The notes: a model not told the origin generated them from the sequence alone. A stretch of DNA of 64,000 bases from a candidate division WOR-3 bacterium (GCA_965649265.1 CBFGKC010000004.1:122590-186589), one strand, 5' to 3'. Counted from the stretch's first letter, positions 5,624-39,471 are shown. Made by a program: numbers and translations.

Positions 5624-6445
5624 ATGTCCGACTTGCTAGACGTTTCCCGTGAGTACCACACCATTGTCAGCAGGCGGCTGGAGGCCAGAGGGTTTTCCAG
5701 CGAGCAGGTTCTCGTTCACAAACGGATACTCGAGTTGGCCGGAACCGCAAAAGACACAAGTGACCTCGAGGGTAAAAAGGAGGCTGAGAACCTCAATTTC
5801 AGACTCGCTCAGGCTCTCTCCATAGATAACTGGCTCGCCAGGGCGAAGGCGGCCTCGGAGTCAGGTGAAACGCTCGCAAAGAAGCTCTTCGAGGAGACCG
5901 CGGACGCTGCCCGCAAGGCAGCGGACCACGCGTCGCTCGCAAAGTCCGTTGACGAGGCGAGCACCCAAGGCACCCAGATGCTAGCAATCCAGGAGTATGT
6001 AAAGAGTTCATTCATCTCCGCGCTCTACGCGATCTTTGCCTATCGCATAACGCACCCGGCCAACGTCGAGGAGCGCAAGAGGCAGAAGGCGAATCTCGAT
6101 ATCCACACTTCCGAGATCAAAAAGAAAGGCTCGAGCTTCGAGCAGCTTCTCGGAGACTTCTACTATAAAAGTTTCGCGCCGCTTTCCGAAGTGCAGTGGA
6201 AGGAAATCGAAAAAATCTACAAGTCCATGCAATCCTCCGAAACCGACAAGGTGGCCCGGAACTCTCTCGAAGACGAGGTCAAGAAGGCGAACGGGGTGCT
6301 TAAGGGCAAGATGACGGAACTCAAGGAGCTACAGGCTTACATCGAATCAACGGGTACGCGGATGGCCTACCTCGGCATCTCCCCGAAGGAAGAACCTGGC
6401 CCATACACGTTCGAAAAAATCTGGGAAGGGGGCAGGGATGAATGA
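5624..6445 (+). CDS. Hypothetical alpha-helical / coiled-coil protein
   Basis: 273-aa ORF with AGGAGG SD and a promoter at 5567-5594; no motif recognised. Confidence 0.8.
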   Translation: MSDLLDVSREYHTIVSRRLEARGFSSEQVLVHKRILELAGTAKDTSDLEGKKEAENLNFRLAQALSIDNWLARAKAASESGETLAKKLFEETADAARKAADHASLAKSVDEASTQGTQMLAIQEYVKSSFISALYAIFAYRITHPANVEERKRQKANLDIHTSEIKKKGSSFEQLLGDFYYKSFAPLSEVQWKEIEKIYKSMQSSETDKVARNSLEDEVKKANGVLKGKMTELKELQAYIESTGTRMAYLGISPKEEPGPYTFEKIWEGGRDE

Positions 6446-7517
6446 GCAGGTGAAGCAGATGGTCGCCGGTTTCAAGCTGGCGTATGAGACGTACAAGGGT
6501 ATGCTTTCCGCGGAGGAGTTCGGTCCGCTCGAAGCGGTCTACAACGAGATGGAGACGATTGCCGAGTCCGCAGTAGACTTCACGGCGTTCAATGACGCGG
6601 CCGCAAAGGTGGACATATTCACTCGCCTTTCCACCGAACTCGGAAAGGCGCAGGCCTTGCTCGACTCCAAACCGAAATCCGAGCGCAAGACGCTTTCGGC
6701 CGAGGGCTTTATTGCCCAGTACCGGACGCTATACGAACAGGCCCAGGCCGCTCCGCATACCTACCGGACGCGCGAGGTATACGAAAAGCTGCTGCCGCTC
6801 GGGGACGGCGCGGAAACGCCACTCGAGGTCGTACGCAAGGCCGAGGATGAGAACCTGTTCCACAGGATAGGGGCTATGGGTGTCTACGACACATACAAGC
6901 TGGATTATGACAAGCTGGATCCCAACGAAGCCCCTTTTAGAGATTTCAGAATGGACGTTTTAGAAATATGCGAGAAGTCTGAGACCGCAGATGAACTAAC
7001 CTACAATGTTGATAGACGCGTGTACGAGTCGCAGAAAGAGATAGCACATGACAACTTCATTACCCAGATGATTGCCAACCTCGTCGGCTCCTTCCTGAAC
7101 CTCGAACTCTCCAAGACCGCAGTACGGACTGGACGGCTCGACTACATCGCCGCGGTCGCCATATACCGTGAAGAAGCTAGAGAGGCGTACCGCATCCTTG
7201 TGGATGAATTCGGCCTTGACTGGGGTAAGTTCATGTCCACCGAGCGCTACAAGAAACGTTTTCTCATGCAGGCGGCTGTTATCCCCGAGACCACTCGCGT
7301 TTTCCAGGCAATGGCACCCGAAAACCTCGAGTGGATGCGGGAGACCATTTTCGAAGAGGTTCTCTCCCCGCTTTCGCTTGCCGACATCATCCTGCGCAGG
7401 TCATCAAACGTTTTTCACCCTCTCGCACTCGAGGAGCATTCCATAAAACACGGCTTAGACGCGAAGCTCAAATCAAGATCGCTCGAACTCGTAAAGGACT
7501 TCTACTGGGCGAAGTAA
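6438..7517 (+). CDS. Hypothetical alpha-helical protein
   Basis: 359-aa ORF overlapping the upstream stop; no motif recognised. Confidence 0.8.
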   Translation: MNEQVKQMVAGFKLAYETYKGMLSAEEFGPLEAVYNEMETIAESAVDFTAFNDAAAKVDIFTRLSTELGKAQALLDSKPKSERKTLSAEGFIAQYRTLYEQAQAAPHTYRTREVYEKLLPLGDGAETPLEVVRKAEDENLFHRIGAMGVYDTYKLDYDKLDPNEAPFRDFRMDVLEICEKSETADELTYNVDRRVYESQKEIAHDNFITQMIANLVGSFLNLELSKTAVRTGRLDYIAAVAIYREEAREAYRILVDEFGLDWGKFMSTERYKKRFLMQAAVIPETTRVFQAMAPENLEWMRETIFEEVLSPLSLADIILRRSSNVFHPLALEEHSIKHGLDAKLKSRSLELVKDFYWAK

Positions 7518-14358: not shown

Positions 14359-14424
14359 GCCTTTGTATCCTAACAATCTTCTTTAAAACAACTTGTGCGT
14401 TTGTTCCGACAAAACAGATTGCGT

Positions 14425-14441
14425 TGTGCCAAAAAGTCCCA
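14425..14441. promoter_or_regulatory. Putative bEBP enhancer site 2
   Basis: TGTGCCA-AAA-AGTCCCA, a degenerate copy of site 1. Confidence 0.5.
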
Positions 14442-14495
14442 ATGGGAATCGCACACTAGGGATTCTTTTTTTTAGGCTCAGCTTCAAGTCTTTTT

Positions 14496-14508
14496 TTTAA
14501 ACAACTTA
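14496..14508. promoter_or_regulatory. Possible IHF site between enhancer and promoter
   Basis: TTTAAACAACTTA after a T-tract; partial match to WATCAANNNNTTR; similar TTAAAACAACTTG at 14383-14395. Confidence 0.35.
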
Positions 14509-14533
14509 CGAGAAGCCCTCGGCTCCGAATGGC

Positions 14534-14549
14534 TGGCACGTATATTGCT
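14534..14549 (+). promoter_or_regulatory. sigma54 -24/-12 promoter
   Basis: TGGCACG-TATA-TTGCT is an exact match to TGGCACG-N4-TTGCW. Confidence 0.88.
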
Positions 14550-14796
14550 CTTAATTATAGCGAGCGGTTGAAGAGAAAGGTCGGACGGTTGTCGGAGTTA
14601 AGAAATTAGATGGAGGTCCCGGCAACAATTCTTGCATCCCGATAGAGGGCAGGTATTGGGCGGTGTATAGGAGTAAGGATGGGAGGGGGGAAAATTGGGT
14701 TATGTTGAAAGTTAGTTTGGGGCTTATACAGGTTATAGAGAAGGTGTTTCCTGTAATGAGGGTGAAAACAACCAATCTCAAATAAGGAGAATAATC

Positions 14797-15264
14797 ATGA
14801 AGATAAACAAGCTCGCTTTTGTCCTGATCGTTATGGTCAGCTTGGTCGGTGCAAGCTCCGCGTTTGCTATAACTGGAGGCGACTGCTATGGAGGCGGTAC
14901 CGGAACCATCACCAACGGCACTTACTCCTTTTGCCCGTGGGGGTCCTGGACTGGCTTCCACAGCACCGGGTCTATATCAGGGCTATTATATGGTCAGACA
15001 GGCTTCTCCGGGACTGTTGATGAAGGAGAATTCAATATAGATTATGCTTCGGGTACCTGGAGTCTATCGTATCTCGGTTATTCTTTTGCAGGCACCTTCG
15101 CGATGGATTTTAGCAACATGTATTTCGTCGGCGGCGAAGGTTGGTACATGAGAGGCATTACCGGAGAATGGGCGCTGACATCCGCCCCTCAAGGATGGTC
15201 TACAGGTCCGACAACGCGGACGATTAACGGTTACGAGTATTTGTGGGAAGATGACGACGAGTGA
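14797..15264 (+). CDS. Secreted Gly/Trp-rich beta protein (divergent WxG family member)
   Basis: AAGGAG SD; Sec signal ending LVGASSAFA; GSWTG, SGTW, AGTF, TGEW strands; acidic tail EDDDE. Confidence 0.82.
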   Translation: MKINKLAFVLIVMVSLVGASSAFAITGGDCYGGGTGTITNGTYSFCPWGSWTGFHSTGSISGLLYGQTGFSGTVDEGEFNIDYASGTWSLSYLGYSFAGTFAMDFSNMYFVGGEGWYMRGITGEWALTSAPQGWSTGPTTRTINGYEYLWEDDDE

Positions 15265-15312
15265 TGAGAGTTCATAAGCTCATTAGCTTTTGCCTCTGAT
15301 CATTTTAAGTAC

Positions 15313-15336
15313 AGCAGGGGGGCACTCCCCCCTGCT
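15313..15336 (+). terminator. Intergenic GC hairpin (weak terminator or stabilising stem)
   Basis: AGCAGGGGGG-CACT-CCCCCCTGCT with a poor U-tract. Confidence 0.55.
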
Positions 15337-15454
15337 TGGATTTGTTTGAGGGACACAGAGAAGTCAAAGTGTCTTTTCTGGCGATTTAACAGGTCGAAGA
15401 AGGGTGTTATCTTCAGAGGGTGAAAACAGCATAATCTCTGGAAAGGAGAAATCA

Positions 15455-15916
15455 ATGAAGGAAAACAAACTCACATCAATCGCCGCTTTTGTAGTGGTAC
15501 TGAGTGGTTTACTTGTGGCAACGCCTATTATGGCGGGACCAGTTTACCAGGAATACTGGTCAGGTACAGGTGATCCCTATACATATCTTGGTTTCCAGCA
15601 GATGGGTTATATTAACCCATTCCACGAGTGGAACATAAATATTGATGTTGAAGCAGAAGGCATTCCCTACAATATCGCCGCATCCTGGAGCGATCAGTAC
15701 GGCCACACGGGCACTATCCAAGGCCACATCAGCTACCTAAGTGATGGTGCGGGCTATGGTGTATGGGATTGCGACCAGCATCCTACATCGTTTGGTACTT
15801 GGACTGGTTCTTTTGGTAGAGGAGGGGTTGGAAGTAGTTGTTCCGGAACCTTCACTTACTATTACCAAGGCGGATATCAAACCGGCGGTTGGTTCTCAGG
15901 AACCAGAGATCAATAA
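15455..15916 (+). CDS. Secreted Gly/Trp-rich beta protein (WxG family)
   Basis: AAGGAG SD before MKENK; signal peptide; YWSGT, GTIQG, YGVW, FGTWTGSF, SGTF, GWFSG strands. Confidence 0.85.
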   Translation: MKENKLTSIAAFVVVLSGLLVATPIMAGPVYQEYWSGTGDPYTYLGFQQMGYINPFHEWNINIDVEAEGIPYNIAASWSDQYGHTGTIQGHISYLSDGAGYGVWDCDQHPTSFGTWTGSFGRGGVGSSCSGTFTYYYQGGYQTGGWFSGTRDQ

Positions 15917-15936
15917 AGTCTCACGCAAGCGTCATT

Positions 15937-15966
15937 ACAGGGCGGGCGTAAGCCCGCCCTGTTTCT
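15937..15966 (+). terminator. Rho-independent terminator
   Basis: ACAGGGCGGGC-GTAA-GCCCGCCCTGT followed by TTCT. Confidence 0.7.
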
Positions 15967-16066
15967 CAATATCTTAGAATTCAGGATAATATCCAGAGAA
16001 TTCTGAGGTTTAAAAGACGGTTATGAGTGGCTTAAATGAAATTAAACTAGTTTATAGTTAATTGAC

Positions 16067-16094
16067 TTGACAATTCGTTCGGTTTACCTATAAT
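16067..16094 (+). promoter_or_regulatory. sigma70 promoter TTGACA-N16-TATAAT
   Basis: Perfect hexamers. Confidence 0.8.
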
Positions 16095-16100
16095 CAACGC

Positions 16101-16217
16101 ATGGACAATCTAGAAACAAAAAAGAAGGGCGTTCGTTGCTCAATACAACGACAAAAAAACCGGATACAATTATACTACATATCCTCTGCAATTATTAACA
16201 TAGGGGGGACCCCATGA
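16101..16217 (+). CDS. Possible leaderless 38-aa upstream ORF coupled to the SDR gene
   Basis: ATG 6 nt after the -10 box; MDNLETKKKGVRCSIQRQKNRIQLYYISSAIINIGGTP*; stop overlaps the SDR start (ATGA). Confidence 0.35.
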   Translation: MDNLETKKKGVRCSIQRQKNRIQLYYISSAIINIGGTP

Positions 16218-17998
16218 AGGTTCTTTTGACAGGTGCCTTCGGTAACATAGGTTCGAGCACTCTTGAAGAGCTCTTAAGGCAGGGACACAGGGTCACCTGC
16301 TTTGACCTCCCAACGAAGGCTAATATTAAAAAAGCGCGAAGGCTTGGAAACAAGATTGACATGATTTGGGGTGACGTTCGAAACCGCAAGGATGTGGCTG
16401 ATGCAATCCTTGGACAGGATGCGGTAATTCACCTCGCGGCTATAATACCTCCACGCAGTGAGTTAGATCCTGAATATGCAGAACAGGTTAATGTTACAGG
16501 AACTCGTAACGTCGTTGAGGCGTTAAAGTCCACCTCCAATCCGGCACGTCTTGTTTTCTCTTCCTCCGTTTCAGTATTTGGTCGCAAGTTCTCGACACCT
16601 CCTCCTCGTACCGTAGATGAGTCTATTGAACCTTCCGACAACTACTCCAGGCACAAGATACTCTGCGAGGAGATGATACGTTCTTCTGGTTTGCGCTGGG
16701 CTATCCTGCGCTTTCCGGCTGTCCCGCCGCTCGTGAGTCTTCAGATGGATCCTATAATGTTTGATATAGCGCTTCATACGAGAATCGAGTTCTTGCATAC
16801 CCGTGACGCAGGTCTGGCGCTGGCAAATGCAGTTTCGTCCGACGAGGTTTTGGGAAAGATTCTTCTCATGGGCGGAGGAAGCCGCTGCCAGTTCGAGTAC
16901 TGTGACTACGTCGGCAAGACCCTTGATGCGGCAGGTATAGGCAGGCTCCCGTCGGAGGCGTTCGGCAGCGAACCGTTTTACACAGACTGGGTAGACTCTT
17001 CTGAGAGCGAAAGTCTTCTGTTCTACCAGCGCCACACCTACACGGATTACCTGCGTGAGTTCAGTGGCAATCTCGGATTCAAGCGCTTTATTATCCCATT
17101 TTTTAGACCGTTCATAAGGAGAGCGTTACTGCGGTGCTCGCCCTATATGCCGCCCGGTGCCGCAAGCGGGCGGAAGAGTTCCGAGTACTGGAGGGATAAG
17201 GTCGTTATCGTAACCGGTGCGTCGAGCGGCATCGGCGAGGCGTGTGCGCGCAGGCTTGCCCATGAGGGGCTCAGGGTTGCATTGGTTGCAAGACGCAAGG
17301 AGAGACTCGATGAAATCGCTAAAGCCATATACCTTCAGGGAGGCGAGGCTATGGCTGTATCTGCCGATTTGACCGTCGAGGATGAAAGAATCCGTGTCAT
17401 TGAAGAGGTACGCGAGAACTGGGGCAGGATTGATGTCCTTGTAAATAATGCCGGATTCGCATGGTACGGCTACGGTGCCGATATGCCCTGGGATGTCGCG
17501 TCCAAGATGATTGACCTCAACGTCAAAGCGCTTGTGCACATGACGCTTCTTGTCATCAAGAGGATGCGTTCTTACAACTCCGGACACGTGATCAATGTCT
17601 CTTCCATAGCCGGAAGCTTTCCGCAGCAAGGTACAATGCTCTACAGCGCTACAAAATCTTTTGTAGACAGCTTCTCAACTGTCCTCTACCGGGAAACGCG
17701 CGGTACAAACGTGCATGCTAGTTGTATTAAGCCAGGAGCCGTCTCCACTGAACTTTTCGATAACGCAAGACAGGATCCCACTTCTCTGCCCATTCCTGCA
17801 GAAGGGATGGCCGTGAGTGTCGAGAGGGTCGTTAACCGTATTTGGTCTCTCATGAACAGGCCTCGCAGAAGGGTCTTTGTTCCTGCACTCCTGTGGATTA
17901 TTCCATGGGTTGAACAGTTGTTCGGATGGTTCATCGACAAGCTTGGAGCACTGCTTCTCAAACACAGCGCCAATACTGCAAAGGTCCAGGTGAAGTAA
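16214..17998 (+). CDS. Fusion of an extended SDR (epimerase/dehydratase type) and a classical SDR
   Basis: N-domain TGAFGNIG, HLAA, YSRHK; C-domain TGASSGIG, NNAG, YSATK. Confidence 0.9.
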   Translation: MKVLLTGAFGNIGSSTLEELLRQGHRVTCFDLPTKANIKKARRLGNKIDMIWGDVRNRKDVADAILGQDAVIHLAAIIPPRSELDPEYAEQVNVTGTRNVVEALKSTSNPARLVFSSSVSVFGRKFSTPPPRTVDESIEPSDNYSRHKILCEEMIRSSGLRWAILRFPAVPPLVSLQMDPIMFDIALHTRIEFLHTRDAGLALANAVSSDEVLGKILLMGGGSRCQFEYCDYVGKTLDAAGIGRLPSEAFGSEPFYTDWVDSSESESLLFYQRHTYTDYLREFSGNLGFKRFIIPFFRPFIRRALLRCSPYMPPGAASGRKSSEYWRDKVVIVTGASSGIGEACARRLAHEGLRVALVARRKERLDEIAKAIYLQGGEAMAVSADLTVEDERIRVIEEVRENWGRIDVLVNNAGFAWYGYGADMPWDVASKMIDLNVKALVHMTLLVIKRMRSYNSGHVINVSSIAGSFPQQGTMLYSATKSFVDSFSTVLYRETRGTNVHASCIKPGAVSTELFDNARQDPTSLPIPAEGMAVSVERVVNRIWSLMNRPRRRVFVPALLWIIPWVEQLFGWFIDKLGALLLKHSANTAKVQVK

Positions 17999-18020
17999 GA
18001 ACTCAACATCAGAAATCCAC

Positions 18021-18046
18021 AAGGGACAGGCTTAGGCCTGTCCCTT
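18021..18046 (+). terminator. Terminator-like hairpin
   Basis: AAGGGACAGGC-TTAG-GCCTGTCCCTT. Confidence 0.65.
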
Positions 18047-18179
18047 CATTTGGATGCCTGAGCGATCGAGTCGAAAGAACACATCGGGCCAGGAAAGGAT
18101 TTGACATCATTGCGCTTTTATCTATATTAGTATTACAAGCCGGTCGTAAGATCGGTTAAACAAAGGAGTGGTCTTTACC

Positions 18180-18992
18180 ATGGATGAGTTCATAAAGACA
18201 AATTATGATCGTTGGCAGGAACTTGTCGGCATCAACGCCGGTTCGCCGTTTTACGGGGTGGAAAAATTCAAGAAGGGCGGGCTTTTCCTCGAAAGGCTGG
18301 AGTTGGAAGGCGTAGGCGAGGTGAAGGGTAAGTCGCTCCTTCACCTCATGTGTCACTTCGGACTTGGAACCCTTTCCTTCGCCAGACTTGGGGCACGCGT
18401 CACGGGAGTCGACTTTTCACCAAAGGCGATAGAGTACGCTCGCATCCTCGCGAGCGAGCTGTCAATCCCGGCGGATTTCGTCTGCTCGGATATCTACGAC
18501 TTGCCGGCCAGTCTTAGTGAGCGTTATGACATAGTATTCACGTCATACGGCGTGCTCTACTTTCTTCCGGATCTTAAACGGTGGGCCGCGATTGTAGCTC
18601 ACTTTCTGAAGCCCGGAGGTTTCTTTTTCATCGTTGACGGACACCCGTTTGAACAGATATTCGATCTGGGCGGCGCGCCCGACGGTGCGACCGATCTGAA
18701 GGTAACCTATCCCTACTTCTCCGAGGGACCCGTTCGATGCGACGAAAAGGGCTCATATGCCGACAGCGAGGTCAAAATGGAGAATACGGTATTTTACAAA
18801 TGGCTGCATCCCGTTTCGGAGATAATCAACTCGCTTACGACTGCAGGACTCAGGATCGAGTATTTCAGGGAGTACCCGTTTGCTACAGCGCCCATGCTGC
18901 CCTATTTCGTACGCAAGGAAGACGGTTACTGGTGGTTGCCTGGGGACCGCAAGGACATCCCCTTCATGTTTTCCTTAAAGGCATGGAAATAA
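18180..18992 (+). CDS. Class I SAM-dependent methyltransferase
   Basis: LLHLMCHFGLGTLS...VTGVDFS; LKPGG; paralog of 20089-20898. Confidence 0.9.
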   Translation: MDEFIKTNYDRWQELVGINAGSPFYGVEKFKKGGLFLERLELEGVGEVKGKSLLHLMCHFGLGTLSFARLGARVTGVDFSPKAIEYARILASELSIPADFVCSDIYDLPASLSERYDIVFTSYGVLYFLPDLKRWAAIVAHFLKPGGFFFIVDGHPFEQIFDLGGAPDGATDLKVTYPYFSEGPVRCDEKGSYADSEVKMENTVFYKWLHPVSEIINSLTTAGLRIEYFREYPFATAPMLPYFVRKEDGYWWLPGDRKDIPFMFSLKAWK

Positions 18993-19079
18993 AAAACATG
19001 AAAGCGGAAGCGTAGCTTGCGCCCATGCGGCATCGAGCCGCTAGTTTTCCCTTAAAGGCATGGAAATAAAAAACATGAA
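18973..19079 (+). repeat. Tandem duplication (77-nt period) of the methyltransferase 3' end
   Basis: CCTTAAAGGCATGGAAATAAAAAACATGAA is identical at 18973-19002 and 19050-19079. Confidence 0.85.
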
Positions 19080-19313
19080 TGCGTAAGCGAAGATGCACCC
19101 TAATGGTTTACTAAATGAGGCGGCTTTATCCTTTAACGGTCTCCTGATTTTGCTCAAGGAAGCTTCTTCATATCCTTTTTCAGGAACCATTCTTTCATGA
19201 CCTTAAGGCTTTTCTGGGGCGCGTTGAAGCACTTTGCCCTCGGCGCCGAAATTCAAGCAATCTAGGCCTTTGAGCATCTTGACATGCATTCTATCCATGC
19301 TATAGTCATCAAC

Positions 19314-19976
19314 ATGATCAAAAAGACATTTCAATTGCTGGCGTTATTTACGCTTTTTACCTTTGCCTGCGCGGGACACGCAGGCGGTTCTGGAGGGACA
19401 ATGCATGCAGCCGAAATACGCACCTACGAAGGTCAGAAGCTTTCCTCGATCAACGATTTTCGCGAGAACTCCATCCGAGGCCCGCTAAAGATAGACATCT
19501 CGAAGTACCGGCTCGAGATTTTGGGCCTTGTCGATACCTCGAAAACATACACTTACGATCAGGTTCTCGCTCATGGGCAGATCAAGAAGGTTATTACCAT
19601 TCACTGTGTGGAAGGCTGGAACGTGACCCTTCTGTGGCAGGGTGTGCCCGTGCGTGATCTTATCAACGAAGCACACGCGAAACCGGAAGCGAAAATCGTC
19701 ATCTTCTCTTCGCCCGACGGCTACTCGACGTCCTTCCCCCTCTCCTACATAATGGATAATGAGATACTCCTTGCTTACAAGATGAACGATGTCACTCTTC
19801 CTGCAGAACGCGGCTATCCCTTCGAGCTTGCCGCTGAGGGCAAGTGGGGCTACAAATGGATCAAGTGGGTCTCGAAGATAGAACTCTCTTCGGACACAGC
19901 CTACCGCGGCTTCTGGGAATCACGCGGCTACTCCAATTCAGGCGATCTCGACGAGTCCTTCTTTTCCAATCCTTAA
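19314..19976 (+). CDS. Molybdopterin-dependent oxidoreductase (sulfite oxidase / MsrP-YuiH-like)
   Basis: IHCVEGW (Mo-ligating Cys), W.GV, DGYSTS, ERGYP, GYKWIKW, GFWESRGY; N-terminal signal. Confidence 0.9.
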   Translation: MIKKTFQLLALFTLFTFACAGHAGGSGGTMHAAEIRTYEGQKLSSINDFRENSIRGPLKIDISKYRLEILGLVDTSKTYTYDQVLAHGQIKKVITIHCVEGWNVTLLWQGVPVRDLINEAHAKPEAKIVIFSSPDGYSTSFPLSYIMDNEILLAYKMNDVTLPAERGYPFELAAEGKWGYKWIKWVSKIELSSDTAYRGFWESRGYSNSGDLDESFFSNP

Positions 19977-20088
19977 TGTCCCGAAAAATGCCGGAATCCT
20001 TCAGGTTGTGCCCTTAGAAGTCGCCTTGCTTTTTTTATGGGCCACCGGCTTGAATTGACAACTCTTCGTCTTCCAGTATATTGAATAC

Positions 20089-20898
20089 ATGGACAAATAT
20101 GTCAAAGCCAACCAAGCGCACTGGGACGACATGGTGGATGCGCACGTGCGCTCCGAATTTTACGATGTTGAAGGATTCAAACGCGGCCGTTCGACGCTCG
20201 ATAAGATAACACTCGAAGGCGTCGGCGATGTCGGCGGTAAGTCACTCCTTCATCTCCAATGCCATTTCGGGCTCGATACGCTTTCCTTTGCCCGTCTTGG
20301 CGCTCGTGTTACAGGCGTGGACTTCTCGCTAAGGGCGATAGAACACGCTCGCATACTCGCAAGCGAACTCGACATACCGGCCACCTTCGTATGTTCCGAC
20401 GTGTACGACTTGGCAGACAATCTCTCCGGTCAGTACGATATTGTCTTTACTTCCAAGGGAGTGCTTTGCTGGCTGCCTGAACTGGAAGGTTGGGCCCGGG
20501 TCGCAAGCCACTTTCTCAAGCCCGGTGGGTTCTTCTTCATCCTTGAATCCCATCCCTTCTCACACATCTTCGACGACGAGAACCCTTCGGAACCCAAAAT
20601 GCGCTATCCCTATTTCCTCAAGGAGCCCATGCCGTTCGAGGGCGACTCCTCATACGCGGTTTCGCACTTCGACACCCGAAATCCTCGATCCTACGAGTGG
20701 ATGCATCCCGTAGCCGAAATCATTAACTCTCTCATATCGGCCGGTCTCACGATCGAGTACTTCAGGGAGTATCCTTTTATTTTCGATCGGCGCTTTGCGT
20801 TTCTCGAAAGGGGAGAGGACGGTGAGGAGGGTTTCTGGCGTTTGCCGGGAAAAAGGGTGGATTTTCCGCTGATGTTCTCGTTGAAGGCGACAAAATAA
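20089..20898 (+). CDS. Class I SAM-dependent methyltransferase
   Basis: LLHLQCHFGLDTLS; paralog of 18180; promoter at 20055-20082 with ATG 6 nt after the -10 box. Confidence 0.9.
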   Translation: MDKYVKANQAHWDDMVDAHVRSEFYDVEGFKRGRSTLDKITLEGVGDVGGKSLLHLQCHFGLDTLSFARLGARVTGVDFSLRAIEHARILASELDIPATFVCSDVYDLADNLSGQYDIVFTSKGVLCWLPELEGWARVASHFLKPGGFFFILESHPFSHIFDDENPSEPKMRYPYFLKEPMPFEGDSSYAVSHFDTRNPRSYEWMHPVAEIINSLISAGLTIEYFREYPFIFDRRFAFLERGEDGEEGFWRLPGKRVDFPLMFSLKATK

Positions 20899-21182
20899 GA
20901 AAAAATGTCCTTCATGCCGCATCAAGGAAAGTGAACGCCATTCCGAGGGTTTCTTGAAGTCAACAAGAAACTGTACTCCCTTCCTCCTCGCATTAAACAG
21001 GTTCTTCTGCTCATCCGGATTTCATTCCTGTTACTCATGGATGTCAGAGGATTGATTGTTATTGGCGGTATCAACTGCATTCCGTGAGCGATTGCTAGAA
21101 CGCTTCATTCGAGGCATATCCGTTTCTGAAGGCTGTGTTACATCCATGTTGACAATTGTCGGAATAAAAGTATCTTTGCACG

Positions 21183-21770
21183 ATGAGTACGGAAGACCAG
21201 GCTAACGGAAAGTCCTGCGCGTACGGCGTAGTGACTCTAATCGAGGGCGAGCCGCGTGAATGGATAGAAGGATTATGGCAGGAGCTTCTCGATAGATTCA
21301 ACCTCCAGCATCCTTACGAGAGTCCCATCGCGCACTTTTCCTATCACGTCGCTTCGGGCTACGATCTGGAGCGCGTGAAACCTCTTCTGGCACAGTTTGC
21401 CCAGTACAAGCAGGGCTTCAGGGTTCGTACTGAGGGTCTCGGCGTATTCACGAAAAAGGATCCCATCATCCACATACCGCTCGTTCGTAACCCCCAACTG
21501 ACCACTTTCCAGCGTTCGCTCTGGCAGGTAATTGACTCCTGGTCCGAAAATCCACTGACATACTATCATCCCGACAGCTGGATGCCGCATATCACTCTGG
21601 TGCACGGCAACCTACCAGCGGCCAGGCTACCGGAGATAGTCGGTTTTCTCGCGTCCAAGCAGTTCAACTGGGAGATAGAGGTTTCCAACATCTCGATAAT
21701 CTGTTCTTCGCGAACGAGAATCGATCCCGAACTGAGCTTCGGTCTCTCCACCGAAACCTTGACGGCCTGA
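21183..21770 (+). CDS. 2H phosphoesterase / 2'-5' RNA ligase family protein
   Basis: Two HxS/T motifs: AHFS and PHITL. Confidence 0.82.
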   Translation: MSTEDQANGKSCAYGVVTLIEGEPREWIEGLWQELLDRFNLQHPYESPIAHFSYHVASGYDLERVKPLLAQFAQYKQGFRVRTEGLGVFTKKDPIIHIPLVRNPQLTTFQRSLWQVIDSWSENPLTYYHPDSWMPHITLVHGNLPAARLPEIVGFLASKQFNWEIEVSNISIICSSRTRIDPELSFGLSTETLTA

Positions 21771-21818
21771 CGGCTCGAACTATCATAATACAACATAGAA
21801 AAACGTAAAGGAGCGGCG

Positions 21819-22802
21819 ATGATTGATTTGAAAACGAGTTACATGGGGCTTGAGCTTCGTAATCCCATCATCGTGGCGAGTTCGGGACTTACGGCAACCG
21901 TTGACGGTCTCGAAAGACTCGAGGATGCGGGCGCGGGGGCGGTGGTTCTCAAGAGCATATTCGAGGAGCAAATAGCGGTTGACGTCGATGACTTGACCCA
22001 GAATACCTGGCTGCCCGGTCACCCTGAGGCTTTCGATTACGTGCGCGAAATGGGATTCGCGCTGGGGCCGTCGAAATACGTCGATTTCATAACAGAGGCG
22101 AGAAGGTCCGTCAAAATACCTGTTATAGCTAGCCTCAATTGCATCTCCTCCTCCTGGTGGACCGACTACGCGAAGAAAATCCAGGATGCCGGCGCAGACG
22201 CTCTCGAGCTCAACATCTCCGTGATGCCTTCGGACTCGAGACGCACGAGCGCGGAGATAGAGAAGATATATTTCGATATCCTCGAATCTGTAAGATCGAA
22301 GATCAAGCTTCCCGTTGCCTTGAAGATAGGACCTTATTTCACTTCCATGTCGCGGTTCGCTGATGAGCTTGCTCGCAGAGGTGCGTCCGCTCTGGTGCTT
22401 TTCAACCGCTTTTACCAGTTCGACATCGATCCGGAAAAACTTGAGCTTTCGTCCGGCAACCCGCTGAGTTTGCCTTGTGAGTGCTCTATTTGCCTGCGCT
22501 GGGTGGCGCTTCTTGCCGGTCGGCTCGGGATAGATCTAGCCGCCTCGACGGGCGTGCACGAGACCGGGGACGTCATCAAACATCTTCTTGCCGGTGCGGC
22601 CGTCATCCAGCTTGCGTCCACGCTCTACAAGAACGGGGTCGAGAAAATATCCTCGATTCTTGCCGGTCTTGAAGAATGGATGACTGTGCACGGCTTCAAA
22701 TCCCTTGCCGATTTCAGGGGTCGTATGAGCCAGGTGCACTCCGAAAAGCCCGAACTTTACGAGCGCCTCCAGTATATCAAGGCACTCGTCGGAGTGGAAT
22801 AG
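21819..22802 (+). CDS. Dihydroorotate dehydrogenase-like flavoprotein
   Basis: LRNPIIVASS, GAVVLKS, ALELN, LFNRF..DID, TGVH, LLAGA. Confidence 0.9.
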   Translation: MIDLKTSYMGLELRNPIIVASSGLTATVDGLERLEDAGAGAVVLKSIFEEQIAVDVDDLTQNTWLPGHPEAFDYVREMGFALGPSKYVDFITEARRSVKIPVIASLNCISSSWWTDYAKKIQDAGADALELNISVMPSDSRRTSAEIEKIYFDILESVRSKIKLPVALKIGPYFTSMSRFADELARRGASALVLFNRFYQFDIDPEKLELSSGNPLSLPCECSICLRWVALLAGRLGIDLAASTGVHETGDVIKHLLAGAAVIQLASTLYKNGVEKISSILAGLEEWMTVHGFKSLADFRGRMSQVHSEKPELYERLQYIKALVGVE

Positions 22803-22939
22803 AAAAACCCATCTAACGCGCAGGGCGTTCTTGATGGGTTCCCGGGGGGTATTGACGTCAAGAAGTGTCCTCCTATTCCCAAAATATGTTGACATCACAC
22901 GCTTCATCGTTAATGTATTCAAAAAACAAAGGAGGAAGT

Positions 22940-23491
22940 TTGCTCAAGACAGCCCTTTTACTCGCCGCCGGTATCATTTTATCACCTGTGGTTCTGCCTG
23001 CGCAGGAGCCTTTCGAAGTAGTCGAACTTGACAGTGCGACCGTTGACAGCATGGCAGAATCGTGGTATGAGCAGGCCGAAACCGGACAGAAAACAATGGG
23101 TGAGCTCGATTTCTACCTCGTCGTCTCGCCCGACCAGCGGTGGATGGTTATGGGCAGACCGGTAGAGGGTCTGGATGTAGTGACTTACAAGCTTTACCTT
23201 ATATCCATTTACGACGCCAACCTGCGTCTCATCTCCGAGCAGGCGCTGGGTGTTACTTTCTCTCCTACTTCCGATTACTTGTTCGTCGTCCAGGGGCCTA
23301 ACCCGCTCCTTTATGATCTTGAAAGACACGCAGGCGTCGTCATCAAAAACATCTCTTCTGGTCTTGAAAACTATCCCTGCTGGGTATCGAACTGGTCGCG
23401 CGACGGAAAAGAACTCATCGTAAGACAGCAGCTGCGTTTTGACGATGCGGGTCAGCCGCGAGCCTGGAGATTAACAATCACAAATCAATAA
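22940..23491 (+). CDS. Secreted hypothetical protein with TolB-like (PD40-like) motifs
   Basis: GGAGG SD then TTG at 22940; signal peptide; VSPDQR, FSPTS and WSRDGK motifs. Confidence 0.65.
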   Translation: MLKTALLLAAGIILSPVVLPAQEPFEVVELDSATVDSMAESWYEQAETGQKTMGELDFYLVVSPDQRWMVMGRPVEGLDVVTYKLYLISIYDANLRLISEQALGVTFSPTSDYLFVVQGPNPLLYDLERHAGVVIKNISSGLENYPCWVSNWSRDGKELIVRQQLRFDDAGQPRAWRLTITNQ

Positions 23492-23494
23492 AAA

Positions 23495-23830
23495 ATGGAT
23501 CCAGACGAGCTTCTCGAGGTAACGGGCGCGACAGGGTGGCGCAAATGGCTGCAGCGAAACCATTCAAGGAAAAAGGAAATCTGGCTGGTTTTCTACAAAA
23601 AAAGTCAGGAAGAAAAAGCATCACCTACGAAGAAGCGATTAAGGAGGCCTTGTGCCTCGGATGGATCGACGGGTAGATAAAATCACTTGATAGTGAACGA
23701 TATTCCATAAGATTCACCGCCAGGAACAAGAGATCTAATTGGTCCACGTCCAATATCGAACGCACCCGGCGACTCCTAAAGGACAACCGGAAGACCAATT
23801 TCGGCTTGGCTATAATTCCAGAGGAAACCC
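23495..23830 (+). pseudogene. YdeI / OmpD-associated family pseudogene
   Basis: WRKWL.RNH...EIWLVFYKK, frameshift near the A7 run (23597-23603), then SITYEEAIKEALCLGWIDG, TAG at 23674-23676, then IKSLD...RFT.R..RSNWS..N. Confidence 0.8.
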
Positions 23831-23845
23831 AAAAAAAGATTCGAC

Positions 23846-23880
23846 AAAAAAACTGCCGGGCGGATACTCTCCGCCCGGTA
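23846..23880 (-). terminator. Rho-independent terminator ending the WxG array
   Basis: Minus strand TACCGGGCGGA-GAGTA-TCCGCCCGGCA-G-TTTTTTT. Confidence 0.85.
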
Positions 23881-23906
23881 TCTATATGTGCTGATTTATT
23901 AAGTGA

Positions 23907-24356
23907 TTATTCTTCGTCGACCGGCAGAAGCTGTTTGCCTTTCCAGAAGCCGTGGTGTATTGCGTCCGGATCGTTGAATGTCTTCCATTCGCCTTTGCCG
24001 ACGCCCGGATAAGACGATACCAGATCAAAGACGCCGAGCCAGTTGCCGATCTCGACGCCGAATTTATCGTAGATGATGCCGTTATCCGTCTTGTAGATGC
24101 CGCCTCCGTCAGTATTGAGTACCGCGTATAGCGTCCCGTAATCGGCATCGCTAATGTCGGATTGCCATTTGCCCTCGAAGTAAGGGACAGTGCCTGCGGG
24201 TCCATTGTCGAAGATGGTGCCTTTCCAGGTACCCTGGATAGCTATGCCTGAAGGGTCGCCCCAGTAGGTACCTTTCCAGTCAGTATTTTCTGCGGAAAGC
24301 GAGCTTGCTCCAAGAACAACGAGAAGCATCGTTAGTGTGAGGAGTGTCTTTTTCAT
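23907..24356 (-). CDS. Secreted WxG-repeat protein, array member 7
   Basis: Signal LGASSLSA; NTDWKGT, GTWKGTI, FEGKW, GTLYA, IGNWLG.F, GKGEW, GFWKG. Confidence 0.9.
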   Translation of the reverse strand: MKKTLLTLTMLLVVLGASSLSAENTDWKGTYWGDPSGIAIQGTWKGTIFDNGPAGTVPYFEGKWQSDISDADYGTLYAVLNTDGGGIYKTDNGIIYDKFGVEIGNWLGVFDLVSSYPGVGKGEWKTFNDPDAIHHGFWKGKQLLPVDEE

Positions 24357-24469
24357 CAATATCCTCCAGTGAGGTTTAATGTTTCTTAACCTCTCCTTGA
24401 AAACACGCTGTATCCTTCATTTGTCATCAATCGCATGACGGCAAGGGATTCCTTTCCGATAGTTCCGTC

Positions 24470-24874
24470 TCAGGGCACCTGCTCGCCTTTCCAGCTTCCG
24501 ATATAGGGTGCCCAGAGCCATGTCCAGTCACCTTTACCATAACCTGGATCGACCGAAACTGTGAAGGTACCGCCCCAGTTTCCGACTACGGAACCATCTT
24601 CGTCGTAGATAACGCCTTTGACTATCTTGTAGTTACCGAGTCCGTCTGACTTAAGGGATGCATTCATAGTTCCCCATTTCGCTTCATCCATCGATGTCCA
24701 TTTGCCTTCAAAGTGAGGGGCTGTCGGTCCGGTTGGGTCATCATATATGGTGCCCTCCCATGTGCCTTGATCCATGCAGAAGTATGTACCTGCCCAGTTC
24801 GTGTTGGCCGCCACAAGCGAACCTGCGCCCAGCATGAGCATGAGCGCTGCAACGGTAAGGAGTATTTTTTTCAT
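24470..24874 (-). CDS. Secreted WxG-repeat protein, array member 6
   Basis: Signal LGAGSLVAA; NTNWAGT, GTWEGTI, HFEGKW, VGNWGG.F, GKGDW, GSWKG. Confidence 0.9.
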   Translation of the reverse strand: MKKILLTVAALMLMLGAGSLVAANTNWAGTYFCMDQGTWEGTIYDDPTGPTAPHFEGKWTSMDEAKWGTMNASLKSDGLGNYKIVKGVIYDEDGSVVGNWGGTFTVSVDPGYGKGDWTWLWAPYIGSWKGEQVP

Positions 24875-24973
24875 CGTATCCTCCTAGGATATTTTTTTGA
24901 TTTTTCGCCCTACCAGGATACACGCTGATTTATTGTTCTGCTTTTATATAAAGCGAGCTAAAGCGTGGTTTTT

Positions 24974-25387
24974 TTATTCCTCGTCGTTCAAAGCTAACTG
25001 GCCTTCCCATTTACCCTTGAACGGGGCGTCTACCCATGTCCAGGTGCCTTCGCCGTGACCGGGCTTGACCATCAATGTAAAGGAGCCGTACCAGTAGCCG
25101 ACGATTAATCCTTTTTCATTATAGAGGGTTCCCTTTATTATCTCATAGTTGCCAAGTCCGTCGGCCTTAAGGGTCGCGTACATCGTTCCTTGCTTGTTTT
25201 CGTCTACTGATGCCCATTTGCCTGAAAAGTAAGGTTTAGGTCCGATGGGACTGTCGTATATAGTTCCTTTCCATATGCCTTGGTCAACGCAAGAGTACTT
25301 GCCTTTCCAGTTTGTGTTGGCTGCAGAGAGTGAGCTTGCGCCAAGAACGAGCGCGAGCGCTAATACGGTCAGCAGTAATTTTTTCAT
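24974..25387 (-). CDS. Secreted WxG-repeat protein, array member 5
   Basis: Start MKKLL at 25387; LGASSLSAANTNWKG, GIWKGTI, FSGKW, GEGTW, GKWEG. Confidence 0.9.
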   Translation of the reverse strand: MKKLLLTVLALALVLGASSLSAANTNWKGKYSCVDQGIWKGTIYDSPIGPKPYFSGKWASVDENKQGTMYATLKADGLGNYEIIKGTLYNEKGLIVGYWYGSFTLMVKPGHGEGTWTWVDAPFKGKWEGQLALNDEE

Positions 25388-25456
25388 TTCTTCTCCTACA
25401 CATGGTTTTGGTTTTTCCTCCTCCTTTAAACACCAATTATTATAGCTATCCGGCAA

Positions 25457-25873
25457 TCAGGGTGATTTTCCTGTCCATTTACCTGACGCAGAACCGTCGG
25501 CAAGCTGCCACGTGCCTTCTGCACGGCTGTCCGGAGTGCCGTCGTAATCCAAGTCGAAGTAACCTTCCCAGTAGCCTATGTTGGTTCCCTGGTCGTCATA
25601 GATTACACCATACGAAACCAAGTAGTATCCGGGTTGAGGAGTGCTGTACACCCCGAAAAGGGTTCCGTGTTCCGTAATGTCGGCGAAATACCAGTTGCCA
25701 GAAAAGTGAGGAACCTGGTCCTCATCAGGATTGTCGTGGATAGTTCCGTTCCAGATACCCGAAAGATCCCCATCGAAAGTTCCTTCCCAGTACGAATCAT
25801 CTGCGGCAAGCCTGTTTACGCCTAAGATACTCAAGACTATGACCAGCGTAAAAGTGAGGAAGGTTTTTTTCAC
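25457..25873 (-). CDS. Secreted WxG-repeat protein, array member 4
   Basis: GTG start with AAGGAGG SD; YWEGTF, GIWNGTI, HFSGNW, IGYWEGYF, AEGTW, GKWTG. Confidence 0.9.
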   Translation of the reverse strand: MKKTFLTFTLVIVLSILGVNRLAADDSYWEGTFDGDLSGIWNGTIHDNPDEDQVPHFSGNWYFADITEHGTLFGVYSTPQPGYYLVSYGVIYDDQGTNIGYWEGYFDLDYDGTPDSRAEGTWQLADGSASGKWTGKSP

Positions 25874-25990
25874 TGTTTCCTCCTTATTTTTTTTATTTTT
25901 TCGCCCTGCCAGGATACACGCTGATTTGGAACCCGGCCGCTCGTGGATTCAACGGCCGGGTCATTCATGGATTTGATTTGTTTTCTTACA

Positions 25991-26398
25991 TCAGGGCAGG
26001 ATTCGCTGGCCGTACCATTCTCCCGTATGGTCAATTTCGAGCTCTGCCCATTTGCCTTCGGCCCGACCGGGCTTGTAGTTCACATCGAAGTATCCCTCCC
26101 ACGATGCCACTACGTTACCCTTGTGATCGTAGGCGACTCCTTTGATTATTTTGTAGATGCCGTGTCCTTCATATGTTAAGTCAGCCAAGAGTTTACCGTA
26201 TTCCGAGTCGTCGCCTAATGACCATTTACCTTCAAAGTGGGGGGCCGCCGGGCCAAGCGGGTCATCGTATAGTGTGCCGGCCCATATACCCTCATGGTCG
26301 CCCCAGAACTTGCCTTCCCAATCCGTATTCGCCGCAACAAGAGAGCTTGCGCCAAGGGCAACGAGGAGCGTTGCAAAGATGAATAACTTTTTTTTCAT
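25991..26398 (-). CDS. Secreted WxG-repeat protein, array member 3
   Basis: LGASSLVAANTDWEG, GIWAGTL, HFEGKW, WEGYF, AEGKW, GEWYG. Confidence 0.9.
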   Translation of the reverse strand: MKKKLFIFATLLVALGASSLVAANTDWEGKFWGDHEGIWAGTLYDDPLGPAAPHFEGKWSLGDDSEYGKLLADLTYEGHGIYKIIKGVAYDHKGNVVASWEGYFDVNYKPGRAEGKWAELEIDHTGEWYGQRILP

Positions 26399-26518
26399 CG
26401 TATCCTCCATACTTGTTTTGTTTATTGTCGCCCTGCCTCATACACGCTGGTTTTGAGGCCGGCCATTTCCGAATGGCTACGGCCGGGTTAGATTCGGATT
26501 AACCTTCTGAAGTTAATA

Positions 26519-26917
26519 TCAAGGCAGTATTCGGTTGCCTTGCCATTTGCCGCATCTATCGACGTCAACCAACGTCCAGCTACCTTCGGCATAGCCTGGT
26601 TTTATGTTCTGATCAAAGTAGCCGTCCCAGACGCCAATTTTGTTGCCATCCGAGTCGTAGATGGTTCCTGTTACGATCTTGAAGATGCCGTGACCGGCGT
26701 ATTCCAGAACCGCATATAGTGTTCCTTCTTCTCCAGTCTCTTCACAAGTCCAACCGCCTTTGAAGATGGGTGGATCCTGTTCGTTGTCGTACAGTGTGCC
26801 TTTCCAGGTACCCGCATTGTCGCCCCAGAATTTTCCATGCCAGTCGGTAGCTGCAGAAAGGGCACTTGCTCCGAGAAGGATTGAGAGTGCAGTCAAAATG
26901 AGAAATGTTTTTTTCAT
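26519..26917 (-). CDS. Secreted WxG-repeat protein, array member 2
   Basis: LGASALSAATDWHG, GTWKGTL, FKGGW, IGVWDGYF, AEGSW, GKWQG. Confidence 0.9.
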   Translation of the reverse strand: MKKTFLILTALSILLGASALSAATDWHGKFWGDNAGTWKGTLYDNEQDPPIFKGGWTCEETGEEGTLYAVLEYAGHGIFKIVTGTIYDSDGNKIGVWDGYFDQNIKPGYAEGSWTLVDVDRCGKWQGNRILP

Positions 26918-26971
26918 GTCTCCTCCTTGTTTTTTCAATTTGTCGCCGCTCCCAGAATACACATGGAAGGA

Positions 26972-27001
26972 CGGGCGTCATCAAAGCTTTGATGACGCCC
27001 G
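26972..27001. repeat. Perfect 30-bp palindrome between array members 1 and 2
   Basis: CGGGCGTCATCAAAG/CTTTGATGACGCCCG. Confidence 0.85.
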
Positions 27002-27129
27002 CCCAGAATAGGTTTAGTAGCCGCTTAAGCCCATTACGCTTTCAAATACAATCTTACTCGTCTTCAAAATGGCAAAGCGACTTCTCAATTTGTTCTTATT
27101 GTCTTTGTTCATGCTCCGGAATGGGCTTT

Positions 27130-27510
27130 TTAAATGCTCCATCCAGACCATTTGCCTGTTTCGCCCGTTTCGAGCGTCCAGGTGCCTTTAGCTAATTCAT
27201 CGTTAACGGCAGGGAAAGTTCCCTCCCATTTGCCGATGACGTTGTATTCTTTGTCAAGGATAGGCCCGGTGACTACATAGTAGTTACCTACGAGTTCGAT
27301 GGTCTCGCCTCTCATATAGCCGTGGGGAGGGGGATCAGTAGGCGATGAGACTTCCCAGGTTCCCCAGAACGGCGGATCGACGTAAGGGGAAAGAGTCCCG
27401 GCCCATGTGCCACTGATGTCCCCGTCGAACGTTCCGGACCAGTTTGAAGCTACAAGACCGCTTGCTCCGATTGTTAGAAGGGCTGCAATAATGAGGGCTT
27501 TTTTAAGCAT
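27130..27510 (-). CDS. Secreted WxG-repeat protein, array member 1
   Basis: IGASGLVASNWSGTF, GTWAGTL, FWGTW, IGKWEGTF, AKGTW, GKWSG. Confidence 0.9.
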   Translation of the reverse strand: MLKKALIIAALLTIGASGLVASNWSGTFDGDISGTWAGTLSPYVDPPFWGTWEVSSPTDPPPHGYMRGETIELVGNYYVVTGPILDKEYNVIGKWEGTFPAVNDELAKGTWTLETGETGKWSGWSI

Positions 27511-27562
27511 AAAAACCTCCGATGCGGTTTAGTTTTTAAGCCCACCCTTTATCCTGCGGGGA

Positions 27563-27590
27563 ATTATAGACCAAACATTGGTTTTGTCAA
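27563..27590 (-). promoter_or_regulatory. Consensus sigma70 promoter of the WxG array
   Basis: Minus strand TTGACA-N16-TATAAT. Confidence 0.82.
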
Positions 27591-38964: not shown

Positions 38965-39459
38965 ATGGACATGAGAAACGATTCACACTGCGGGCTTTAC
39001 TGCGGCAGCTGCCTCGTGATCCTCGGTGCAAAGCGCGGGAAGCTCAAAGCCCTTGCAAGACAGTGGAAGTGCACACCCGAGGACCTCGAATGCAACGGAT
39101 GCAGGTCCGAAAAGGTCACGAAATTCTGTTCGGAATGCACCATTCGCGACTGCGCGAGGGAGAGGGGGGTAGGCTTCTGTATAGAGTGCGGCGATTACCC
39201 CTGTCATCACTACAAGAGGCTGAAAGAGCTTTCAAAGGAGCGTCCGCATCTGAGGCTCCAGCCCGCCGAACTGGAAAGAGTCCGTGCGCTGGGTCCCGAT
39301 CAATGGATGGGGTACCAAAAAAAGCGCTGGACTTGCCCTGAGTGCGGGGAGATGTTTGCCTGGTACGAAGAGAAGTGCTCTAAGTGCGGGGTAAAAGTCC
39401 GATCGAGCGTCGAGGAAGTTCAAGAACACGGTCTCACCGAGTATCCCCTTGACGTGTAG
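38965..39459 (+). CDS. DUF3795 Cys-rich protein
   Basis: CGLYCGSC, C.GC, C.IR.C, C.EC..YPC and a CPECG tail. Confidence 0.85.
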   Translation: MDMRNDSHCGLYCGSCLVILGAKRGKLKALARQWKCTPEDLECNGCRSEKVTKFCSECTIRDCARERGVGFCIECGDYPCHHYKRLKELSKERPHLRLQPAELERVRALGPDQWMGYQKKRWTCPECGEMFAWYEEKCSKCGVKVRSSVEEVQEHGLTEYPLDV

Positions 39460-39471
39460 GAGAGAAGGTTC

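Follow-up and report, generated by a model that had tools for sequence, protein, structure and literature searches.

A 64,000-nucleotide (nt) stretch of DNA from a candidate division WOR-3 bacterium (GCA_965649265.1, CBFGKC010000004.1:122590-186589; hereafter the window, numbered from its first letter) carries on its minus strand seven tandem paralogous genes, A1-A7 (27510..23907; locus A), several of which are preceded by a short non-coding element. We conclude that this element is a real, selectively maintained leader in four internal cistrons of the seven-gene operon, accompanied by one half copy, and its distribution suggests that it is lineage-specific. As to its role, we tentatively favor, at clearly less than even confidence, an intercistronic leader that would act at the RNA level as a processing or 5'-end and translation-initiation module. 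An earlier note on this DNA had extended the element to two genes on the plus strand, B1 and B2 (locus B), a proposal that is considered below together with the explanations that compete with an RNA-level role.

A conserved leader in the seven-gene array

The genes of locus A constitute a single family (34-44% identity to A1, 33-62% among one another) whose products, each of 126-149 amino acids (aa), all bear an N-terminal signal peptide and are predicted to be secreted eight-stranded beta-barrels. This fold was returned by an AlphaFold model of a 35-sequence family alignment with A2 as the first sequence (predicted local distance difference test, pLDDT, 85.9), and its matches in the PDB are weak (best E-value 2.7e-3, template-modeling score ~0.55) and consist of small barrels such as the NHBA C-terminal domain, hemophilin and TbpB. 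The coding sequences (CDS) are arranged as follows.

27510..27130, minus strand: A1, promoter-proximal paralog, 126 aa, signal peptide
26917..26519, minus strand: A2 CDS, 132 aa, first sequence of the modeled alignment
26398..25991, minus strand: A3 CDS, 135 aa
25873..25457, minus strand: A4 CDS, 138 aa, GTG start
25387..24974, minus strand: A5 CDS, 137 aa
24874..24470, minus strand: A6 CDS, 134 aa
24356..23907, minus strand: A7 CDS, 149 aa

A clear homologous leader stands before four internal genes, A2, A3, A4 and A6. Read 5' to 3', the element comprises a GTGTAT block, 8-10 variable bases, the sequence GGCGA(A/C)AA, an A-rich tract and a GGAGG ribosome-binding site; GTGTAT and GGCGA are its invariant bases, and both blocks fit GYGWAW. 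The copies, and the weaker likenesses before the remaining genes of the array, are these.

26940..26966, minus strand: A2 copy, two-block score 13/14
26425..26450, minus strand: A3 copy, two-block score 13/14
25897..25927, minus strand: A4 copy, two-block score 14/14
24901..24931, minus strand: A6 copy, two-block score 14/14
24390..24410, minus strand: A7 half copy, 5.1 bits and E = 3.8 with a model built from the four copies above
25411..25434, minus strand: weak element-like stretch before A5, 11/14, tied with two spurious sites, alignment p 0.02-0.71
27532..27550, minus strand: A1 leader, a G-rich block and then an AAAAAC tract, 10/14, background

The strings quoted in the earlier note are all present on the strands it gave, with the four strong A copies misplaced by 3-4 nt, and its claim that eight of nine genes share the element contracts, within the array, to A2, A3, A4 and A6 plus the half copy of A7, A5 and A1 being at background. 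Before A7 the first half of the element is retained (CAGCGTGT) and the second block has diverged. This 8-mer occurs six times on the two strands of the window, four times within these leaders, where it lies 50-54 nt upstream of the start codon of A3, A4, A6 and A7; because A7 keeps it at the conserved distance, we regard the A7 sequence as a decayed true copy. Across seven copies the first block lies 45-53 nt upstream of the start codon; for the leader module of the internal cistrons as summarized here the distance is 45-50 nt. The 9-mer that had been put forward for A5 (25397-25405) is weak; the stretch at 25411-25434 fits better, not significantly so, and adjoins on its upstream side a lone TATAAT (within 25433-25446). 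As had been noted for the promoter-proximal gene, A1 lacks the GTGTAT block, and the likeness of its leader is limited to the second half of the element. The homologous stretch exceeds 26 nt: starting at the first block, it takes in the A-rich tract and the ribosome-binding site and continues as far as the first codons; between A3 and A4 it also reaches upstream across a common hairpin.

Conservation of the element lies beyond neutral expectation. The A4 and A6 copies are identical at 30/31 bases between flanks that cannot be aligned, whereas the two proteins are 33% identical and the four-fold synonymous sites of the two genes agree at 7/25; among the A paralogs generally such sites are near saturation (5/25 to 21/38 identical). 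Over 26 nt the mean pairwise identity of the element is 0.72, compared with 0.71 for the best coding windows and a coding median of 0.54. Local alignment of the intergenic regions of A2, A3, A4 and A6 gave, for each of the six pairs, a better score than at least 199/200 shuffles, a repeat finder recovered the element unprompted (families D7 and D17), and a 19-mer pattern searched with up to three mismatches gave two matches against 0.01 expected. The four-copy model, run over both strands of the 64 kilobases (kb), detected nothing further above noise (next E = 3.6 or worse, A7 being among the below-noise matches), and within the same 64 kb no copy precedes any unrelated gene. Non-coding conservation despite protein divergence therefore holds for A2, A3, A4, A6 and the first half of A7, and neither of the objections foreseen for it, that the motif is common before unrelated genes or no better conserved than synonymous sites, survives the comparison within these 64 kb. 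Because the element matches at 30/31 while the synonymous sites of the same genes are saturated, the comparison points to an element kept by selection and not by passive duplication. Nor does it behave as a dispersed repeat of the REP or MITE kind, which would be present in many scattered copies; there are only four in 64 kb.

Two other candidates were rejected. An apparent extra copy at 7410-7452 (minus strand) lies antisense within a CDS (6438..7517), has a 24-nt gap and no downstream start codon, and is probably due to chance. Small upstream open reading frames (ORFs) of 7-9 codons, starting from the first-block GTG or ATG in A2, A3 and A4, have no ribosome-binding site and an inconsistent stop position, and A3 carries a 1-nt indel.

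The signals around the genes give the array the layout of an operon.

27563..27590, minus strand: array promoter, sigma-70-type (TTGACA, 16 nt, TATAAT), 5' of A1, 12/12 consensus
26969..27004, minus strand: intercistronic hairpin before the A2 element, 16 base pairs (bp), GC-rich, no U-tract, from folding
26457..26487, minus strand: intercistronic hairpin before the A3 element, from folding
25931..25961, minus strand: intercistronic hairpin before the A4 element, 12 bp, no U-tract, from folding
23856..23878, minus strand: intrinsic terminator closing the array, 9-bp stem and then a T run, from a terminator scan

On the coding strand of locus A the only non-coding promoter sites of 12/12 or 10/12 are upstream of A1, and none of the six A2-A7 intergenic regions holds a sigma-70-type site (-35 and -10 hexamers 16-18 nt apart, at least 9/12 matches, with A2 and T6 of the -10 box). 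The sole terminator outside coding sequence on the array strand follows A7. The stems lying 5' of the element (16 bp before A2, at least 7 before A3, 12 before A4) are without U-tracts, and the terminator scan, which calls sites after A7 and after B1, calls none of the three. The A3 and A4 hairpins share an identical 5' arm, ACCCGGCCGT, and are homologous. The 5' arm of the A2 hairpin (26996-27010, minus strand) opens with a sequence that nearly repeats the central part of the A2 element (26943-26958, minus strand), TATTCTGGG followed by GC-rich bases; this hairpin seems to have arisen inside the element or to have duplicated part of it.

The absence of a -35 box from the element is informative, because a perfect TTGACA with a 16-nt spacer is the rule in the host genome. 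A scan of the whole window gave 35 sites with at least 10/12 matches, 21 of which have exactly this form, and the host pattern can be written TTGACA-16-TAnnnT, with sites mostly directly before genes (for example 20055-20091, 21149-21185, 27828-27864 and 54750-54789). In 8 of 27 promoter sites inspected an ATG follows 2-9 nt past the -10 hexamer, so placed that many mRNAs look leaderless; the listed ORF starts at 19284 and 44439 are probably placed too far upstream. Both the strictness of the promoter pattern and the many genes that look leaderless may aid annotation of the lineage more widely.

Likeness to the leaders of locus B

B1 and B2 lie directly 3' of a gene (9236-14311, plus strand) for a 1691-aa protein with Ser/Thr kinase, STAND-type/AAA ATPase, TPR, GAF and sigma-54 activator domains, the last with a helix-turn-helix. 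The features of the locus are as follows.

14534..14549, plus strand: sigma-54-type promoter-like site (TGGCAC, 5 nt, TTGCT), ~250 nt 5' of B1
14740..14770, plus strand: B1 copy of the element, 12/14
14797..15264, plus strand: B1 CDS, 155 aa, signal peptide
15313..15336, plus strand: terminator-like hairpin with a T-rich tail, 3' of B1, from the terminator scan
15386..15413, plus strand: B2 promoter-like site (TTAACA, 16 nt, TATCTT, TG upstream), 9/12 consensus
15399..15428, plus strand: B2 copy of the element, two-block score 11/14
15455..15916, plus strand: B2 CDS, 153 aa, signal peptide

We take the site at 14534-14549 to be of sigma-54 type from its fit to the consensus (TGGCAC, 5 nt, TTGC, with GG at -24 and GC at -12). 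If this promoter is used the B1 copy would be transcribed, because it lies inside the ~250-nt leader. About 80 nt 5' of the B1 copy, the same leader holds a loose element-like stretch (14662-14695, plus strand) made of a GTGTAT block, 16 nt, a G run and AAAAT. The promoter-like site before B2 conforms to the pattern of the host genome, and its -10 hexamer falls within the first block of the B2 element.

The earlier note had treated A1-A7, B1 and B2 as nine WxG genes of one family. By the comparisons made here that name describes a composition and not a demonstrated family: B1 and B2 have no detectable relationship beyond the signal peptide (BLASTP E = 0.2), and against the A family hhalign gave B1 a 41% probability, mostly over the signal peptide and with no homology demonstrated, and B2 a probability of 4.6%, with no homology detectable beyond the signal peptide. 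The structure model of B1 (pLDDT 61.6) is too poor for fold comparison, and Pfam has no match for any of the nine small proteins. In a set of 5.8 billion proteins B1 has only two relatives (76% and 70% identical), both from a 2044-nt contig that is possibly one and the same, and B1-type genes may thus occur in tandem elsewhere.

Upstream of the two B genes the case is different in kind, since the B1 and B2 regions resemble each other over ~85 nt (0/200 shuffles as good) and share an exact 13-mer that ends 26 nt before the ATG in both. The window contains two exact copies of this 13-mer, and seven matches against 1.64 expected when up to two mismatches are allowed. The link between this region and the array element is less firm. 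None of the A-versus-B intergenic alignments is significant (p = 0.02-0.69), all 21 intergenic pairs besides the six pairs above and B1-B2, every A-versus-B pair included, give p = 0.02-0.71, the model from the four A copies fails to list B1 or B2 at E <= 10, and two-block matches with up to two mismatches are common (24 against 10.45 +/- 3.7 in shuffles). A rank test over 112 candidate starts preceded by a ribosome-binding site, with the blocks defined from A copies only, placed B1 as the top non-training site (12/14) and left B2 and A5 tied at 11 with two spurious sites. Three of the five remaining candidate genes are among the best 5 of 108 (hypergeometric p ~5e-4), a value to be read with the fact that the gap range and search window were picked after B was seen. 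For the earlier proposal of the element as an independent tie between the two loci, one rank test is thus supportive and two tests, the model search and the alignments, are negative; B1 and B2 share a region of their own, and its likeness to the A element is suggestive.

A bolder proposal, which we consider unlikely, is that the element is an undescribed cis-regulatory RNA motif (GTGTWT, 8-12 nt, GGYGAAAA), set at a constant spacing from the start codon, that is read by a dedicated RNA-binding protein or ribonuclease and joins the array and locus B in one regulon. If true, such a regulon would link the sigma-70-driven barrel array post-transcriptionally to the sigma-54- and kinase-controlled B locus through a dedicated factor of the WOR-3/Stahlbacteria-related lineage, and it would be the more distinctive given the many apparently leaderless genes of the host genome.

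The role of the element and competing explanations

The putative mechanism that we favor requires A1-A7 to be transcribed as a single polycistronic mRNA from the lone canonical promoter upstream of A1, such that the element would be transcribed and would act as RNA just 3' of the GC-rich hairpins without U-tracts, where it would mark the start of the translation-initiation region of every downstream cistron. An endonuclease cutting within or close to the single-stranded GUGUAU block would then produce an upstream fragment ending in a protective 3' hairpin and would provide the downstream cistron with a short, uniform, A-rich leader and a strong ribosome-binding site. Transcription through the element, cutting of the RNA there and whatever this may do to mRNA stability or translation are steps that we infer from the layout described above.

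Several observations weigh against this mechanism. By eye, the RN|WUU cleavage motif can be fitted to the GU|AUY core within the first block, and that motif is almost information-free. At B2 the element and a promoter-like site overlap and align in register with TATCCT in the A copies, and therefore an origin or role at the level of DNA is plausible. General domain scans of the window proteins turned up no ribonuclease gene. Folding the leaders gave no structure common to the copies (z-scores of -1.8 to +0.8 against shuffles), and Rfam has no family over the element, whether at gathering threshold or at E <= 5. The Rfam search that had been proposed for these leaders brought no family there to its gathering threshold: with Rfam 15, the whole window yields a single tRNA at gathering thresholds, and permissive scans of 23800-27700 and 14300-16000 gave four matches, all below gathering (E 0.53-4.2) and none on the element, among them DnaX (19.3 bits against 35), which overlaps the A4 hairpin, and ROSE_3 (19.5 bits against a gathering value of 43), inside the A7 CDS. 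The variable middle of the element does pair better with its own upstream flank than with the flanks of other copies (0/1854 and 0/265 derangements reach the observed mean), and this own-versus-cross duplex test points to a short stem enclosing the first block, with few copies behind the signal. It is carried by A3, whose middle is unlike that of A4 and A6 and pairs with sequence directly 3' of the hairpin, by A4, where the pairing uses an arm of the large hairpin, and by B1, which further tempers its value for the mechanism.

Evidence from other genomes points the same way. The A family is a rare one, with 28 clusters at E <= 1e-3 in records labeled 'bacterium' and WOR-3, and its closest protein relatives reach 96% identity to A1 and 92% to A2. 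A contig scan with a 10-sequence A-family subgroup returned three related loci, two from Candidatus Stahlbacteria and one from an uncultured bacterium, with 4, 2 and 1 family genes, in which the arrays start from canonical promoters and have spacers of 27-50 nt. These three arrays, with seven family genes in all, contain neither the element nor spacer hairpins, and therefore provide no cross-genome conservation or covariation. In one Candidatus Stahlbacteria locus two spacers (9121-9153 and 9975-10001 of L001) hold an identical 15-nt stretch that ends in a ribosome-binding site, precedes divergent paralogs and differs from the element, making it another conserved leader, in a sister lineage. 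A common leader thus seems to be a habit of these arrays, with this particular sequence lineage-specific.

We next weigh the possibility, somewhat unlikely in our judgment, that the element acts as DNA, either supplying the -10 and start-site region for internal promoters that lack a -35 box or serving as an operator that overlaps them. Such promoters would require an activator or an alternative sigma factor, and each paralog could be transcribed separately after partial termination at the preceding hairpin. The B2 copy speaks for this explanation most directly, as it coincides with a site (TTAACA, 16 nt, TATCTT, TG upstream) that fits the genome pattern, and the A copies hold TATCCT or TATTCT in the same register to the G-rich/A-rich block. 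The A2 copy has ATGACG 16 nt upstream of its TATTCT, A1 has a perfect promoter but no first block, the lone TATAAT of A5 lies directly 5' of the element-like stretch, and the A2 hairpin and the B1 terminator have tails of similar T content. Against these points stand the 6/6 A intergenic regions scanned without a promoter-like site and the -35 matches of A3, A4 and A6, which by eye amount to 0-2/6 at 16-17 nt spacing in a genome where perfect TTGACA rules. The invariant bases are, moreover, the GTG before TAT and the GGCGA after it. A sigma-70 -10 box is a poor fit because the last position of the -10-like hexamer varies, being lost in A3 and A7, and in the A copies the TG misses the register of an extended -10 by one base.

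Other promoter and operator classes fare no better. By eye and against the consensus sequences, the spacing or key bases of sigma-28, extracytoplasmic-function and sigma-54 promoters fail to fit; for sigma-54 the element offers TGGCAG or TGGTAG, with A-rich bases at -12. CRP, LexA or a palindromic operator was rejected for want of a conserved dyad in the element. An internal promoter was among three functions proposed earlier: the A copies have no -35 box, the B2 copy does overlap a promoter-like site, and a housekeeping-type internal promoter at the A copies is disfavored. The element may nevertheless descend from, or still act as, a promoter or start-site module that lacks a -35 box.

It is also possible, though we hold it unlikely, that the element acts at the RNA level as a translational operator and not as a processing site, exerting joint control over several cistrons and perhaps over the B genes. 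Either the UCCU, UUCU or UUUUC after GUGUAU would pair with GGAGG, or the blocks would bind a protein or a small RNA. In A2, A6, A7 and B1, minimum-energy or centroid folds do pair the ribosome-binding site with a pyrimidine stretch in or beside the element, and in A6 the complement is a perfect 7 bp; the constant distance of the first block from the start codon in seven copies, and the position of B1 as the best non-training match among the 112 candidate starts, fit such an operator equally. The pyrimidine stretch is, however, missing in A3 and A5, the ribosome-binding site is not sequestered in the A4 fold, fold energies do not differ from those of shuffles, an invariant GGAGG partner cannot display covariation, and neither a binding protein nor a small RNA has emerged as a candidate. 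A UCCU/AGGG stem proposed earlier for several copies is present in A4, A6 and B1 only, and minimum-energy folds leave it unused.

That the element has no function of its own, and is a remnant of tandem duplication or a short gene-conversion patch at the 5' ends of the paralogs, we regard as improbable. The genes are tandem paralogs, the conserved block continues through the ribosome-binding site into the first codons (repeat family D4), related genomes lack the element, and it is wholly or partly lost before A5, A7 and A1, all of which such a remnant would accommodate; it is the saturated synonymous sites of these same genes, A4 and A6 included, that it does not. A gene-conversion tract needs flanking homology, and the sharp border of the 30/31 block against unalignable flanks is hard to square with one. 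Least probable is a recombination site at which direct repeats delete or shuffle paralog cassettes behind one promoter in the style of an integron or of phase variation, for although direct repeats do lie between cassette-like paralogs with a single promoter and hairpin-forming intergenic sequences, the 65 window proteins scanned include no recombinase or integrase domain, A1 is without a site, the hairpins are unlike in sequence, the setting is ordinary chromosome, and the cassettes are mutually paralogous, which does not suit an integron array.

Significance and comparison with known systems

Should the element prove to be a processing or translation signal, it would afford a first look at post-transcriptional operon control in an almost entirely uncultured phylum and would explain differing amounts of seven similar secreted proteins from one promoter. 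The papers listed for Stahlbacteria deal with metabolism, taxonomy or polymerase domains, though no search was aimed at this element. Its practical value is modest: the element concerns a handful of genes in one lineage and is not seen in the nearest genomes available. Elsewhere in the window, three DUF3795 paralogs on the plus strand (38965..39459, 39472..39948 and 40866..41342, within 38965-41342) are interleaved with a metallo-beta-lactamase-fold gene. A plus-strand cluster at 54787-63991 encodes heterodisulfide-reductase-like and MvhD-like proteins together with ferredoxin-domain and CCG-domain proteins, two flavin/FeS oxidoreductases of >1000 aa and FlpD, and its content points to an anaerobic lifestyle.

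The favored RNA-level leader has its closest counterpart in processed operons of Escherichia coli, for which PMC5927463 describes protective intergenic 3' hairpins (malE-malF), RNase E cleavage beside protective structures (papBA-like) and RN|WUU as a quoted cleavage motif. As in the operons described there, stable hairpins lie between the cistrons of locus A and are followed by a single-stranded segment and the next initiation region, and, judged by eye, RN|WUU can accommodate the GU|AUY or GU|UUY core found in the first block. Unlike the RNase E sites of that account, for which the motif is degenerate and 5 nt long, the element is a specific sequence of up to 31 nt that is repeated before several cistrons; the cleavages of the E. 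coli operons have been described (PMC5927463), whereas the element is known from the sequence of an uncultured lineage.

Three further systems invite comparison. Like the 'upstream homology box' of Borrelia erp/ospEF genes, the element is a near-identical non-coding 5' region before divergent exported paralogs, and B1 and B2, with their shared promoter-like region, leader and first codons, make the best fit to such a box. Borrelia boxes are promoter and operator DNA before separately transcribed genes on different replicons, in contrast to the A copies, which lie within one apparent operon and have no -35 box. With ROSE and fourU leaders, which mask the ribosome-binding site, the element shares a short conserved 5' leader, a fixed distance to the start codon and pyrimidine pairing in several copies, and it differs from these thermometers in having no Rfam family at threshold and no consistent predicted hairpin. 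GC-rich palindromes and a conserved flank between operon genes resemble REP/BIME repeats, but the 64 kb contain no copies beyond the array, the only hairpins alike in sequence are those of A3 and A4, and the conserved part is a non-palindromic segment beside the ribosome-binding site. In its general form the element belongs to a well-known class, that of the conserved leaders and intercistronic elements of paralog arrays.

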